Notes under the pieces: model-generated
The model's database searches: none
What the model was told of the DNA's origin: nothing
What the model saw: the letters and a program-made list of their open reading frames with translations, nothing else
Part shown: one piece after another, positions 35,834 to 40,562 of the stretch
Layout: each line of letters starts with the position of its first letter
Position numbering within the stretch: the first letter of the stretch is position 1
Source: an uncultured delta proteobacterium
GTDB lineage: Bacteria; Desulfobacterota; Desulfobaccia; Desulfobaccales; 0-14-0-80-60-11
Length of the DNA: 64,000 nucleotides
Direction of reading: 5' to 3'
Assembly (NCBI GenBank): GCA_963812015.1
Contig: CAWETI010000003.1
Coordinates: forward strand, 1,056,001 to 1,120,000
Program-made: the position numbers and the translations under genes

Positions 35834-36133
35834 ATGAGCAAACCTCGGAATAAGGTTCCCGGCACCGGGTCGCGGCCGCCCGGCAAGAATGGCAAGGGCC
35901 TCGCTGACCCAGCGTCGTTGCAGGCCCGTCCGGCCCCGGCAGCCGACCCCAGCAGGAATGACCCAGTGATTGAGAAGGTTCGCCAGATTATCGCGGAGAC
36001 CCCGGAGATTCGACCGGAGAGAGTCGGTCCGCTGCAAGAGGCCGTGGAGCAGGGCGCCTACGAGATCGATGCCCGGAAGGTGGCCAATAGCCTCATTACC
36101 AAACTGATCCAGGACCCTGATACCCCGGTCTAA
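35834..36133 (+). CDS. flgM: Anti-sigma28 factor FlgM-like
   Basis: C-terminal PEIRPERV..LQEAVEQGAYEIDARKVANSLI; low-complexity N-terminus. Confidence 0.75.
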   Translation: MSKPRNKVPGTGSRPPGKNGKGLADPASLQARPAPAADPSRNDPVIEKVRQIIAETPEIRPERVGPLQEAVEQGAYEIDARKVANSLITKLIQDPDTPV

Positions 36134-36211: not shown

Positions 36212-37348
36212 TTAGGTCTCGATCACGCCCCGGGGCAGGGTGCGCAGGCCCTGGAGCAGCATTGAGGCGGCCACCTCCACGTCGGCCCGGGTGGTGGGCC
36301 AGCCGACGCTGAAGCGCACCGCCCCCCGGGCCAGGCTCACGGGCACCCCCATGGCCGCCAGCACCGGGGAGATGGCCTCCCGACCGGCGTGGCAGGCCGA
36401 GCCCAGGGAGGCCGCCAACTCCGGCAGCCCCGCCATCAGCTCGCCCCCCGAGCGCCCCGGAAAAGAGACGTTCAGGGTGTTGGGGAGGCGTTCCAGCTCC
36501 GGGCCGTTGAGCACCAGGCCGGGGACCCCGGCGCCGAGAAGCTCATGGAGACGATCCCGGAGGCTTTGCAGGTGCGCGGTTACACCGGGGAGGCGCTCCC
36601 GGGCCAGGCGGCAGGCTTTTCCTAAGGCCACCATATAGGGGACGTTTTCGGTGCCGGCCCGGCGGCCCCCTTCCTGGGAAGCCCCGTGGAGCAGGGAGGT
36701 AAGGGCGGCTCCGGCCCGCACGTACAAGGCCCCGACGCCTTTGGGGGCGTAAAACTTGTGTCCCGCCACCGTCAGAAAATCCACCCCCAGATCGTCCACG
36801 TCCACGGGGATCTTACCTACGCTTTGGGCCGCATCGGTGTGAAATTTTACCCCCGCTTCCCGGGCCAAGTCGGCGATCTCTTTGAGGGGCTGGAGGGCGC
36901 CGGTCTCGTTGTTGGCATGCATGACGCTGATCAGGATGGTGTCCGGGGCCAGGGCCCGGCGCACCGCATCGGGGTCCAGCCGGCCGGTGGCATCCACCGG
37001 CAGAATGGTCAGCCGAAACCCCTGGGACTGCAAATAACGGCAGGGGGCCAGGACCGCCGGGTGCTCCGTGGCCGCGGTGATGATCTGCCCCCGGCCGTGA
37101 TGCGCGGCCACGCCCTTGAGGACGGTATTGTTGGCTTCGGTGGCGCCGCTGGTGAAAACAATTTCCTGGGGGCCGCAGCCCAGCAGGGCCGCGACTTCCC
37201 CCCGGGCCTGCTGCACGGCGTCCCGGGCCGCAAGACCCAGGGGATAATCGCAGCTGGGATTGCCGAATTCCCCTTCAAGATAAGGCTGCATGGCCCGGTA
37301 GACTTCCGGGGCCACGGGAGTGGTGGCATTGTAATCCAGATAGATCAT
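36212..37348 (-). CDS. Cysteine desulfurase (IscS/NifS family)
   Basis: YLDYNATTP, FTSGATE, HANNETG, GHKFYAPKG, GSACH. Confidence 0.9.
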   Translation of the reverse strand: MIYLDYNATTPVAPEVYRAMQPYLEGEFGNPSCDYPLGLAARDAVQQARGEVAALLGCGPQEIVFTSGATEANNTVLKGVAAHHGRGQIITAATEHPAVLAPCRYLQSQGFRLTILPVDATGRLDPDAVRRALAPDTILISVMHANNETGALQPLKEIADLAREAGVKFHTDAAQSVGKIPVDVDDLGVDFLTVAGHKFYAPKGVGALYVRAGAALTSLLHGASQEGGRRAGTENVPYMVALGKACRLARERLPGVTAHLQSLRDRLHELLGAGVPGLVLNGPELERLPNTLNVSFPGRSGGELMAGLPELAASLGSACHAGREAISPVLAAMGVPVSLARGAVRFSVGWPTTRADVEVAASMLLQGLRTLPRGVIET

Positions 37349-37536
37349 GGCCGGTTCCTCCTGGCAGTGGTAGGCCTGACCCTGGACTTTTCCCGGCTGG
37401 GCCCGATTGACACCTGAATTCGACCTCTGATATTGTAACCCGAAAGGTGGAATTTGGGTCGAAAGAGTTGCCGTGCAGGAGCGAGCCTCACAGGCTCGAA
37501 ACCCTGACCCGCTCCCGATGCCCGCAAATTGATCCC

Positions 37537-38166
37537 ATGAGCCGCTCTCTATCCCCAACCTCTTACCGCCTGGGCCGCTGGCTTTGCCGGCAGACCGTGG
37601 GACGCTATTGCTCACTGGAAGTTCAGGGCCTGGAGCACCTGCCGGCCCGGGGTCCCGCCATCATCTGCCCCAAGCACCAGCGCTGGGAAGACATCCCCCT
37701 CATCGGTATGGCCCTGCCGCCGCTGCTCCATTATATCGCCAAGGTGGAGCTGTTCCAGCAGCCGGTGGTGCGAGAGGTGCTGGGAGCCTGGGGCGGGGTG
37801 CCGGTAGACCGGAGAAACCCCCGGGCCACCCTGTCGTCCTTCAAGCGCCTGCTGCCCCTTTTGAGAAAGGGGGCGTTCCTCGTGCTGTTCCCCGAGGGCA
37901 CTTACGTCCCGGGCCGGGTCGGCCCCGGCAAACATCGCCTGATTCAACTGCTCCTCAAGTTGCAAGGGCAAGAGGGCTTGGGGTTCCTGCCGTTTGTGCC
38001 TGTGGGGGTGGCCTATGAGCCCCGGGCCTGGGGCTGGACGGTGCACGTCAAGCTGGGCCCGCCGCTCCTGGCCCCCGGCCCCCGCCAGGCTCCAGCCCTG
38101 ACCGACGCCCTCATGGCCCGCATCGCCCGGCTGTCGGGATTTCCAGAGACCTCCAAGGCCGGGTAA
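37537..38166 (+). CDS. Lysophospholipid acyltransferase (PlsC family)
   Basis: KHQRWED (HxxxxD), AKVELF, FPEGT. Confidence 0.85.
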   Translation: MSRSLSPTSYRLGRWLCRQTVGRYCSLEVQGLEHLPARGPAIICPKHQRWEDIPLIGMALPPLLHYIAKVELFQQPVVREVLGAWGGVPVDRRNPRATLSSFKRLLPLLRKGAFLVLFPEGTYVPGRVGPGKHRLIQLLLKLQGQEGLGFLPFVPVGVAYEPRAWGWTVHVKLGPPLLAPGPRQAPALTDALMARIARLSGFPETSKAG

Positions 38167-38440
38167 TCCTGAGTCGCCATCGCAGCGGTATTGGTTGCAG
38201 GCGCCTGCTTTGGTCTGCACAGATGGGCGCGCCCCACGCGCCACTTTCTGGTGCGTAAAACGCATCCTGCATTTCCTCAATCCAGGTAATTATTTTTTCG
38301 TAAAAAGAGGGCTCGGAGGGGTGATTTCTCTAAAAAGAGTATTAATTTCAAAAAAAAGTGAATAGTTAACCGCCGCTGGCGGGTTAAGTGGCCTTGGCGG
38401 CAAGCTGATAGCTGGCGGCTGCGATCTCAGAGGTGAGCCC

Positions 38441-38551
38441 ATGAGAACAGGGTGGCAATTTCTGTCATGGCGATGGTGGGTCGTTCATTTCCTGGGGTTC
38501 GCCCTGATCTACACCGCAGGGCGCTTGACCGCCACGTTATTGAAAAGGTAA
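38441..38551 (+). CDS. 36-aa single-TM peptide with a PsbE (cytochrome b559 alpha)-like His helix
   Basis: GAGGTG SD; MRTGWQFLSWRWWVVHFLGFALIYTAGRLTATLLKR; not in the ORF track. Confidence 0.7.
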   Translation: MRTGWQFLSWRWWVVHFLGFALIYTAGRLTATLLKR

Positions 38552-38554
38552 ACG

Positions 38555-38662
38555 ATGAACCGGTGGCTCCCCCACGTGATGTTTCCCCGGCCCGGCTGGT
38601 TTATCCTCCACGCCACCGTCATCGCCCTGATATTTTCCCTGGGCTATAGCGTGAAGTTTTAG
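38555..38662 (+). CDS. 35-aa single-TM peptide with a PsbF (cytochrome b559 beta)-like His helix
   Basis: Starts 3 nt after the previous stop, AAGGT SD; MNRWLPHVMFPRPGWFILHATVIALIFSLGYSVKF. Confidence 0.7.
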   Translation: MNRWLPHVMFPRPGWFILHATVIALIFSLGYSVKF

Positions 38663-38663
38663 G

Positions 38664-39068
38664 ATGGCCCCCATGTCAAGCCAACGCTGGCAACTCTGGG
38701 CGGCCCTGGTGGCTCTGGCCGTGGGCGCCACTATGCTGCATTATCGGATTCACACTCCGGGGGAGGACCCCACCGACCTGTGGCCCAATCTCTTTTCCCT
38801 GATCGACCTGGTCCTGGTGAGCGCCCTGTTCCTGTTCCGGCCCACGGCGCTGTTGGGGCTCTTGCTTAATAGCTTTCTGGCCTTCCTGGGGATCATCATG
38901 ATGGCGGATTTCTCCCTTGCCGCCACCCTGGCGGGCCAGGTGAAGGTCATGCCGGGCCAGAACTTCATCGGCTGGCTGCTGGCCACCACCTTCCCGGATA
39001 TCATGATCGCCCTGGCCGACTTCCTGACGGGCCTGGCCCTCTACCGGGCCATATTGGCAGAGAAGTAG
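38664..39068 (+). CDS. Hypothetical ~4-TM membrane protein with HYRIH motif
   Basis: Starts 1 nt after the previous stop; hydrophobic segments. Confidence 0.75.
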   Translation: MAPMSSQRWQLWAALVALAVGATMLHYRIHTPGEDPTDLWPNLFSLIDLVLVSALFLFRPTALLGLLLNSFLAFLGIIMMADFSLAATLAGQVKVMPGQNFIGWLLATTFPDIMIALADFLTGLALYRAILAEK

Positions 39069-39075
39069 ATTTTTT

Positions 39076-39204
39076 GGGGGAGGGGGCTAAGGGCGAGAGC
39101 CCTTACCCCCTCCCCCAAGCCCTCTCCCCCAATCCCTTACAGGGGGTTGGGAGGGGAGTTTGAGGGGAGGGCGGGGGACTTTTCGTCCCCCGGGCCTCCC
39201 CTCA
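39076..39204. repeat. Family A palindromic element
   Basis: Matches 16699-16836; lies between convergent genes. Confidence 0.8.
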
Positions 39205-39206
39205 TC

Positions 39207-40562
39207 TTATTTTAACCTGCCTCCCGCCAACAGGGCGTACTTCAGGGCCAGGGCTTTTTCGGCCACGGACATGGGGGTAGGTCCCAGGATGCGAATCATG
39301 GGTTCCTTGCCAAACTCTCCCCGGTCGTAGATCAGGTCCGGGGGCGGATCTCCGGGTTTGAGGACCGAGGCCACGCCCCAGGCCAGGGTGCTCCCTTCCC
39401 GGGCCTTGATCCCCGGGGGTTCGGCGCTCCGGTCGAAGCCGGCCACCCGCAGGTGGAGGAGGGGGGCCAGGGCATCCACGCCCTGGAAAAATTTCACGTT
39501 CATGGCGCTCCTCAGCTCAGGATGGGTGGCCATGGCGGTGAGGATGATGGCGGCGATGTGGCGGGATGCGCCGAAGGCCGGCGCTTCGGAAATCAGCAGG
39601 CCCTGGGGGCTGCGCCGGATGCGCCCGGGGAAGGCGGCCACGTCCTGGGGTCCTTCCGGATACGGGGTGGCATAACCAAAATTGGTCATGACTTCCGGGA
39701 TGAGGGGTTCGATGCCCTCTTTCTTGAGGCGGGCCGCGGCGGTTTGCAGTGCGGCCAGGACTTCCGGGCGGGCCAGGTCCCGGGCGAACGGGGCGTAGGG
39801 GTTCACGGGGCCGGCGCCCCGCCCCAGGGGCAGACCGTACTTGAGGGCCTGGGCCGTGAGGCTCCGGGCCCGGTTCACCGCCTCCGGCAAGGACAACCCC
39901 TGGGCCAGGCCGGCGGCGGCGGCCGAGGCCAGGAGGCAGCCCCCGCCGTGGTGATTGGGGGCGTCCAGACGCACGCCGGGCAGGTGGTAGGCGTTCTGGC
40001 CGTCGGTGAGCACGTCCACAGGCTCCCCCGGCAGGTGGCCGCCTTTGGCCAGGACCCAGCGGGGACCCAGGGCTTGGAGGCGGCGGGCCGCCTCTTCCAG
40101 GTCTTCAGGGGTTTGAACTTCCAAGCCGGTGAGCCGAGCGGCCTCCGGGGCGTTGGGGGTGAGGAGGTGGGCCAGGAGGAACAGCTCTTCCTTGAGGGCC
40201 TTGATGCCGTCTGTCGTGAGCAGCGGGAAGCCGCCACCCGCGGCCAGCACCGGGTCGAGCACCAGGGGCACGCCATCCAGGTCCTTTAACCGGTCGGCCA
40301 CGGTGCGGACAATCGACGGCGTGGCCAGCATCCCCACCTTGACCGCATCCACGGGAAAATCGCTCAGCACCGCGTCCAGTTGCGCGGCTACCACCTCCGG
40401 GGCCACCGGGTGGACGGCCAGGACTCCCTGGCTGTTCTGGATGGTGAGGGCCGTGACCACCGTGAGGCCGTAGGTCCCCAACAGGGTGGCCACTTTCAGA
40501 TCCTGTTGCAAGCCCGCGCCGGCGCCCGGGTCGGAGCCGGCAATAATCAGCAGGGTTTTCAT
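39207..40562 (-). CDS. thiD: Bifunctional HMP/HMP-P kinase with C-terminal ThiN (thiamine-phosphate synthase) domain
   Basis: IAGSDPGAGAG, VKVGML, KGGH; C-terminal LIPEVMTN, AAFPGRI, FGASRH, GKEPMIRI. Confidence 0.9.
   Translation of the reverse strand: MKTLLIIAGSDPGAGAGLQQDLKVATLLGTYGLTVVTALTIQNSQGVLAVHPVAPEVVAAQLDAVLSDFPVDAVKVGMLATPSIVRTVADRLKDLDGVPLVLDPVLAAGGGFPLLTTDGIKALKEELFLLAHLLTPNAPEAARLTGLEVQTPEDLEEAARRLQALGPRWVLAKGGHLPGEPVDVLTDGQNAYHLPGVRLDAPNHHGGGCLLASAAAAGLAQGLSLPEAVNRARSLTAQALKYGLPLGRGAGPVNPYAPFARDLARPEVLAALQTAAARLKKEGIEPLIPEVMTNFGYATPYPEGPQDVAAFPGRIRRSPQGLLISEAPAFGASRHIAAIILTAMATHPELRSAMNVKFFQGVDALAPLLHLRVAGFDRSAEPPGIKAREGSTLAWGVASVLKPGDPPPDLIYDRGEFGKEPMIRILGPTPMSVAEKALALKYALLAGGRLK

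Follow-up and report, generated by a model that had tools for sequence, protein, structure and literature searches.

Two single-helix peptides and a four-helix membrane protein, encoded side by side in a 64,000-nt stretch of DNA from an uncultured delta proteobacterium (hereafter the window), probably form a new cytochrome b559-like haem module that works as one membrane complex, a reading to which we give a probability of roughly 0.6 on comparative sequence grounds. The trio, whose products are termed P1, P2 and P3 in gene order, encodes a membrane module of three parts that is widespread and has gone unannotated. Cytochrome b559 is essential to photosystem II, and its function and origin are open. 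Outside photosynthesis no known sequence appears to come closer to cytochrome b559 than P1 and P2 do by their profiles, and they would be its first candidate relatives there.

All three genes lie on the same strand (Table 1), with a gap of 3 nt between P1 and P2 and of 1 nt between P2 and P3; the tight coupling of the ORFs and the GAGGTG element ahead of the first were found just as the original prediction had laid them out. P1 includes SWRWWVVHFLGFALIYTAGRL, with the motif R-W-W-V-V-H-x10-G, and P2 includes WFILHATVIALIFSLG, with the motif P-G-W-F-I-L-H-x10-G. These strings, the LHYRIH motif of P3 and the pattern of a His followed by x10-Gly in each peptide, which places a Gly at His+11 in both P1 and P2, are likewise present in the letters as they had been described. 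The candidate haem ligands are His16 of P1 (codon 38486-38488) and His19 of P2 (codon 38609-38611).

Table 1. Features of the trio and its surroundings, numbered from the first letter of the window
Feature	Position	Strand	Basis or remark
Anti-sigma-28 factor FlgM	35834-36133	+	PF04316, E 5.7e-10; upstream of the region
Class-V aminotransferase (cysteine-desulfurase-like), longest ORF	36212-37615	-	
Acyltransferase (PlsC-like) ORF	37447-38166	+	
Shine-Dalgarno-like GAGGTG	38430..38435	+	5 nt 5′ of the P1 ATG; letters read directly
P1, 36 aa, type 1 (T1) single helix	38441..38551	+	ORF; conservation; pN/pS
P2, 35 aa, type 2 (T2) single helix	38555..38662	+	ORF; conservation; pN/pS
P3, four-helix-bundle membrane protein, 134 aa (131 aa from ATG 38673)	38664..39068	+	ORF; alignments; AlphaFold2
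Three consecutive GC-rich hairpins	39073..39205		Between convergent P3 and thiD-thiN; fold statistics
Fused ThiD (phosphomethylpyrimidine kinase)-ThiN (thiamine-phosphate synthase), 451 aa	39207-40562	-	Convergent with the trio

P3 probably has its conserved start at the ATG of 38673, giving 131 aa rather than the 134 aa read from 38664, because codon 1 (38664) is a non-start codon in 6 of 20 related loci, codon 4 is Met in nearly all of them, and the public protein collection holds P3 in its 131-aa form. In a collection of 15 billion proteins P3 is present and the exact P1 and P2 sequences are absent; annotation pipelines therefore overlook both peptides, which fits the earlier remark that two of the three ORFs had been missed by the ORF track. 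A promoter scan at the trio found no sigma-70-like promoter. A riboswitch or leader RNA 5′ of P1 was considered and rejected, Rfam at E ≤ 10 giving only chance microRNA matches that fell on the downstream hairpins.

P1, P2 and P3 are real genes under purifying selection. With P3 as query, homologues turned up in 19 of the 61 genomes searched, namely G000 and 18 of its 60 relatives, which belong to a single family and to 4 of 27 genera, and tblastn placed P1 and P2 directly 5′ of P3, in the same order, in all 20 loci fetched from the 19 genomes. Three loci are damaged, with frameshifts in two loci of G014 and in one of G004, and one further related locus is cut by a contig end. P1 is kept in all 19 aligned relatives, where 17 columns including W12, W13, H16 and G27 are invariant, and P2 is kept in all 18, with G14, W15, H19 and G30 invariant. 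Summed over the 120 pairs of 16 sequences (L014, L018, L019 and L020, frameshifted or truncated, were left out of the count), the in-frame pN/pS of P1 comes to 0.28 and that of P2 to 0.37, and reading this DNA in its other two frames raises the ratio to 0.86–2.7. The original prediction had proposed tBLASTn as a check on the His residues and on the three-gene order, and had named a lack of conservation or of purifying selection as grounds for giving it up; both His residues proved invariant, the order is kept at every locus fetched, and the constraint lies in the coding frame.

Beyond these close relatives, a family profile search of the phylum found the P3 family in 26 of 401 genomes, representing 21 of 254 genera. 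Within the family of the host the trio was not found in the congeners G001 (100% complete) and G002 (94% complete), nor in 18 of the 36 genomes of that family, though the flanking genes are syntenic elsewhere. The distribution is patchy, and the module is either dispensable or mobile. Short contigs from four wetland metatranscriptome runs, 85–99% alike, cover parts of P1, P2 and P3, and give a hint of expression that comes from relatives and may include DNA carry-over.

Around the trio the window holds genes for a class-V aminotransferase, a PlsC-like acyltransferase and ThiD-ThiN. The longest aminotransferase ORF overlaps the acyltransferase ORF by ∼170 nt. Its true start is probably an internal Met before IYLDYNATTP, because homology to relatives and the Pfam domain both begin near residue 89–91. 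No conserved functional neighbours of the trio were found, the plsC-like/thiDN synteny being confined to the family; in genome G022 the upstream genes differ and the trio is intact. Downstream, the stretch 39066-39210 folds with a minimum free energy of −111.2 kcal/mol (z = −9.0), and none of 200 shuffles was as stable; the hairpins there probably act as a terminator in both directions, or as a REP-like element, and close the transcript of the trio. Rfam returned only chance-level microRNA matches for this hairpin region, and its exact 31-nt hairpin core has a single occurrence in the window. Wetland metatranscriptome contigs pile up on 39118-39185 to a summed depth far above that on the genes, so that similar hairpin elements seem abundant in those wetland communities.

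Three layouts of the module are seen among the 26 genomes with P3. The order found in the window, T1 peptide, T2 peptide and P3, occurs in 15; in 9, P3 is fused to a T1-type helix, which becomes its fifth helix, and a small T2 ORF follows; in the remaining 2, P3 is followed by a separate NOX-like Ferric_reduct/FAD/NAD gene, without helix peptides. P3 is accompanied by exactly one T1 and one T2 helix in 24 of the 26. Searched against 1.84 billion cluster representatives, the P3 profile gathered 99 proteins at E ≤ 0.001, at least 9 of which carry a C-terminal fifth helix with G-W-W-x-x-H that aligns with P1, and three further fifth-helix variants appear in the P3-family alignments. Domain fusions were present in 4 of 23 distant P3 homologues scanned: three join Ferric_reduct, FAD and NAD domains C-terminal to P3, and one joins Pyr_redox_2 and Rubredoxin_C. 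In one family member (P0195, 325 aa) two P3 domains stand in tandem, a W-W-R-F...H segment coming after each and the last of these containing a full GWWLIH helix; this protein is a natural duplication, head to tail, of the entire module.

Because a P1-type helix is fused to P3 in some genomes and separate in others (Rosetta-stone evidence), the peptides and P3 can be taken to work together, and the earlier suggestion that the peptides act with a third protein of about four transmembrane helices gains a functional tie from the T1-P3 fusion in 9 of 26 genomes. Because P3 stands beside or fused to ferric-reductase/FAD/NAD domains, the module is also tied to electron transfer. Directly upstream of the module, on the same strand, lie a cupredoxin gene at one locus (L036) and a SoxA/TsdA-type cytochrome c gene at another (L049), which suggests periplasmic partners; a P-type ATPase gene lies near the module at a third (L032). 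A search of 151 genomes of the cyanobacterial phylum did not find the P3 family.

P1 and P2 are paralogous single transmembrane helices. The pattern W-x3-H-x10-G is invariant in 23 T1 and 27 T2 sequences across 21 genera, and hhalign of T1 against T2 gave a probability of 97.1% (E 5.3e-11) with broad profiles and of 33% (E 4.5e-4) with narrow family alignments. T1 and T2 genes are neighbours at each of the 15 split loci, and at 9 others the T1 helix is fused to P3 with the T2 gene next to it; the fifth helix that P3 relatives carry as a fusion is a homologue of P1. Further T1-like proteins were sought with the C-terminal region of a natural fusion in a collection of 5.8 billion proteins, and no candidate was found.

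The likeness of these helices to cytochrome b559 was met along several routes. In a PDB-wide hmmsearch (177,635 sequences; matches listed at E ≤ 10), all 14 matches to the broad T1 profile were cytochrome b559 (13 beta and 1 alpha, E 0.12–2.1), and all 5 matches to the broad T2 profile were b559 beta (best E 0.058). The narrow P2 profile had PsbF as the top two of its 5 matches (E 0.46), and the narrow P1 profile had no b559 among its 6. In both hmmsearch and hhalign the His of T1 and T2 aligns on the haem-ligand His of b559. With real psbE and psbF genes from cyanobacterial genomes as the comparison set, hhalign scored T1-PsbE at 29.1 (probability 89.7%), the PsbE-PsbF control at 26.4, and T1-PsbF, T2-PsbE and T2-PsbF at 20.9, 21.0 and 21.2, over an aligned region of only 16–24 columns. 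The observed scores all exceeded those of 60 column shuffles (null maxima 15.8–19.6); reversed profiles gave 6.8–11.4, and 26 windows of P3 helices gave 12.9 or less. The haem-ligating helices of ferric reductases (71 windows) scored up to 17.1 against PsbE and 18.5 against T1, so part of the b559 signal is generic to haem-binding helices; only T1-PsbE stands clearly above those helices, the other three pairs, at 20.9–21.2, being slightly above 18.5.

Among Pfam families, PF00283 (cytochrome b559) is matched by 12 of 50 family members, all below its 30-bit gathering cut-off. It is the most-matched family for T1 (5 of 23 members, best E 0.0086) and the second most-matched for T2 (7 of 27, best E 0.0094); DUF4381 is matched by 8 T2 members with a best E of 0.28. 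The P1 and P2 of the window, which were to be scored against the b559 model according to the original prediction, match neither it nor any other Pfam family at E ≤ 10, and the sole NCBIfam match, on P2, is to an unrelated family at chance level (E 0.1, 11.8 bits versus a cut-off of 376). Run over the whole genome, PF00283 did not pick out P1 or P2, its best match lying elsewhere at E 1.78, and narrow-family HMMs (A2, A3) did not recover psbE or psbF from any of five cyanobacterial genomes at E ≤ 10. In the ESM Atlas, P1 lies closest to the cluster 'Cytochrome b559 subunit beta', whose score of 0.78 we treat as a lead only. A second Atlas match to P1 comprises 71 hypothetical proteins of ∼51 aa, mostly from Bacillota, 13% of which carry PF00283; going by this cluster, other non-photosynthetic bacteria may hold b559-like micro-proteins.

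The relation to b559 that had been put forward stands in part. The resemblance is specific, b559 being the only PDB family found with the two broad profiles and four methods pointing to it, and nothing reaches a formal threshold, since the PDB E-values are all above 0.05 and the Pfam matches of the relatives are all below 30 bits. P1 and P2 thus seem to be b559-like in a specific and reproducible way, by descent or by convergence. The profiles do not single out the proposed assignment of P1 to PsbE and of P2 to PsbF: T1 matches 13 beta chains and 1 alpha chain, and T2 scores 21.0 against PsbE and 21.2 against PsbF. The caveat attached to that pairing was sound, comparison with the fetched psbE and psbF showing that the Pro which these have at His+5 is missing from both peptides; P1 is also without the lumenal tail of PsbE.

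P3 is modelled by AlphaFold2 (50 sequences) as four long helices with a mean pLDDT of 93.9 and a pTM of 0.86, in agreement with the earlier description of the third ORF as a protein of about four transmembrane helices with an HYRIH motif; a natural five-helix P3-T1 fusion was modelled with a pLDDT of 84.5. In this family helix 1 ends with H-x-R-I-H and helix 3 carries an invariant Met. In 50 diverse members (131-aa numbering) no change is seen at H23 or M77, and H27, G73 and D109 occur in at least 90%; position 79 is Asp in the subfamily of the window and His in most others. P3 is without a known family or fold relative among the searches made here. There were 572 database matches, and the P3 part of the 23 scanned homologues carries no Pfam family. 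For both P3 and the five-helix fusion, Foldseek gave no match at E ≤ 0.001, and VIA-align gave generic helical bundles only (best Z 11.5 and 10.4, values common for bundles); the P3 family profile had one chance match among PDB sequences (E 0.93). DUF8051 (PF26225) possibly takes in proteins like P3, being carried by 22% of the members of a neighbouring ESM Atlas cluster (score 0.85).

Both ends of the NOX-type ferric-reductase domain, which has six helices, are cytoplasmic. Since P3 precedes such a domain in the fusions, its C-terminus would be cytoplasmic and, with four helices, its N-terminus too. H23, H27, M77 and D109 would then lie near the periplasmic face, and the His of a fused T1 helix about five residues from the cytoplasmic face, as do the b559 haem and the inner haem of ferric reductases. 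Cytochrome b559 is oriented with its N-terminus in and its His near the cytoplasmic or stromal face, and the trio peptides would likewise be N-in with their His near the cytoplasmic face. A complex prediction of P3, P1, P2 and haem, with P2 as the partner, reached a median score of 0.45 against 0.07 for the best control (contact agreement of at least 90% between runs, partner pLDDT of at least 67). Of 157 solved complexes 116 reach that mark, as do 2 of 215 mismatches; just 18 of the 157 pass with a score of 0.60 or less, the range in which both passing mismatches fall, and the result was set aside as weak.

The host genome, 99.86% complete, gave no match to the reaction-centre families PF00124 and PF00223, and it carries dsrA (545 bits versus a curated cut-off of 392.85); the host is therefore a non-photosynthetic sulfur-cycling bacterium, and the first reading, that no photosynthesis genes lie nearby, is borne out genome-wide for these two families. 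Literature searches on 'b559-like' gave nothing relevant, only cytochrome b6 assembly, and those on b559 with non-photosynthetic bacteria, b559 with Desulfobacterota, PF00283 and DUF8051 gave nothing relevant either. The b559 passages of PMC4773611 deal with where it fits in the assembly of photosystem II, without naming any relative elsewhere, and in PMC4582080 b559 occurs only in the reference list.

In the b559-like haem module that we favour, P1 and P2 would be adjacent helices whose N-termini face the cytoplasm, and P1 His16 and P2 His19 would hold one haem b between them on the cytoplasmic side, following the alpha/beta design of cytochrome b559. The pair would dock on the four-helix bundle of P3, where the invariant His and Met, together with the near-invariant His and Asp, may form a second redox or metal (or haem) site on the periplasmic side. 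Together these six helices would move electrons inside or through the membrane, much as a six-helix di-haem cytochrome of the ferric-reductase-domain type does, but split over three polypeptides; the direction and the partners of this electron flow are conjectural, and the window shows no evident partner. A b559-like pair in non-photosynthetic anaerobes would, if true, provide a simple system, expressible in Escherichia coli, for the holding and tuning of haem by two 35-residue helices. It would also give studies of PsbE and PsbF evolution an outgroup, and add a family of membrane redox complexes that is new and in which standard gene callers miss the two smallest subunits.

A possible but doubtful further step is to take helices of the P1/P2 type as genuine, if remote, kin of PsbE and PsbF, which would make these helices the first members of the b559 lineage beyond oxygenic photosynthesis. 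Photosystem II would in that case have recruited b559 from an older anaerobic membrane redox module, and the trio would be a previously unrecognised split, two-centre transmembrane electron wire, distributed patchily across sulfur-cycling bacteria and, by the Atlas lead, Acidobacteriota.

The conserved residues might serve metal instead of haem. The trio would then be a metal-handling membrane complex for the uptake, export or buffering of Cu, Fe or Ni, with His, Met and Asp binding the metal and the ferric-reductase fusions acting as metal reductases that feed a permease. The i/i+4 His pair of P3, with its invariant Met and conserved Asp, recalls copper and iron sites, and the Ferric_reduct fusions, the cupredoxin gene upstream at L036 and the P-type ATPase gene near the module at L032 would suit such a role. 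We nevertheless hold it to be unlikely: in the PDB the peptide profiles match b559 only and no metal transporter, T1 resembles a haem-ligating ferric-reductase helix, P3 matched no transporter family or fold, and one His per helix would make a poor ion path.

Small accessory single-helix subunits are common, and P1 and P2 could play a structural or assembly part in an enzyme or channel that is built around P3 and has some unrelated function, their His serving for packing or as a proton relay and their likeness to b559 being a convergence of short Trp/His/Gly helices. The similarity statistics, all below thresholds, and the short hhalign alignment of 16–24 columns leave room for this, but it must account for a W-x3-H-x10-G pattern that is invariant in both helix types across 21 genera, for b559 being the only family found by four different methods, and for the repeated fusion of P3 to electron-transfer modules, and we consider it improbable. 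Least credible by far is that P1 and P2 are chance, untranslated ORFs in a long 5′ leader of P3. Their absence from the public protein collection and the failure to find a sigma-70-like promoter would agree with it, but the data already contradict it: frames, starts and stops are kept at every related locus in 21 genera, pN/pS falls to 0.28–0.37 in frame only, a Shine-Dalgarno element precedes P1, and in 9 genomes a P1-type helix is part of a longer protein.

Compared with cytochrome b559 (PF00283), the trio shares adjacent genes for paralogous single-helix peptides and, in each helix, one His about five residues in, with Arg/Trp before it and Gly at +11. It differs in lacking the Pro at His+5, a lumenal domain on its first peptide, and psbL and psbJ; moreover its host genome is without reaction-centre genes, its partner is a four-helix protein not found in the 151 genomes sampled from the cyanobacterial phylum, and in many relatives one of the helices is fused to that partner.

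Ferric-reductase-domain cytochromes have six helices and two haems b. These cytochromes (NOX/FRE/MsrQ, PF01794) and the trio have in common a total of six helices and His ligands near the inner face, and T1 resembles the fifth ferric-reductase helix, which carries the inner-haem His (score 18.5). PF01794 has no match on P1, P2 or P3 and was met only as a fusion partner or neighbour of P3. The trio, in contrast to these cytochromes, is split into 1+1+4 helices with one His per small helix, where PF01794 has paired His 13 apart on two helices, and the putative second site on P3 (His/Met) is not a known ferric-reductase feature.

In succinate dehydrogenase a haem b is bridged between two membrane-anchor subunits, SdhC and SdhD. 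No search made here found sequence similarity of the trio to SdhC or SdhD, which are three-helix anchors on a large soluble enzyme, unlike P1 and P2. The putative arrangement in the trio is nonetheless the same in kind, with one His from each of two polypeptides holding a single intramembrane haem b.
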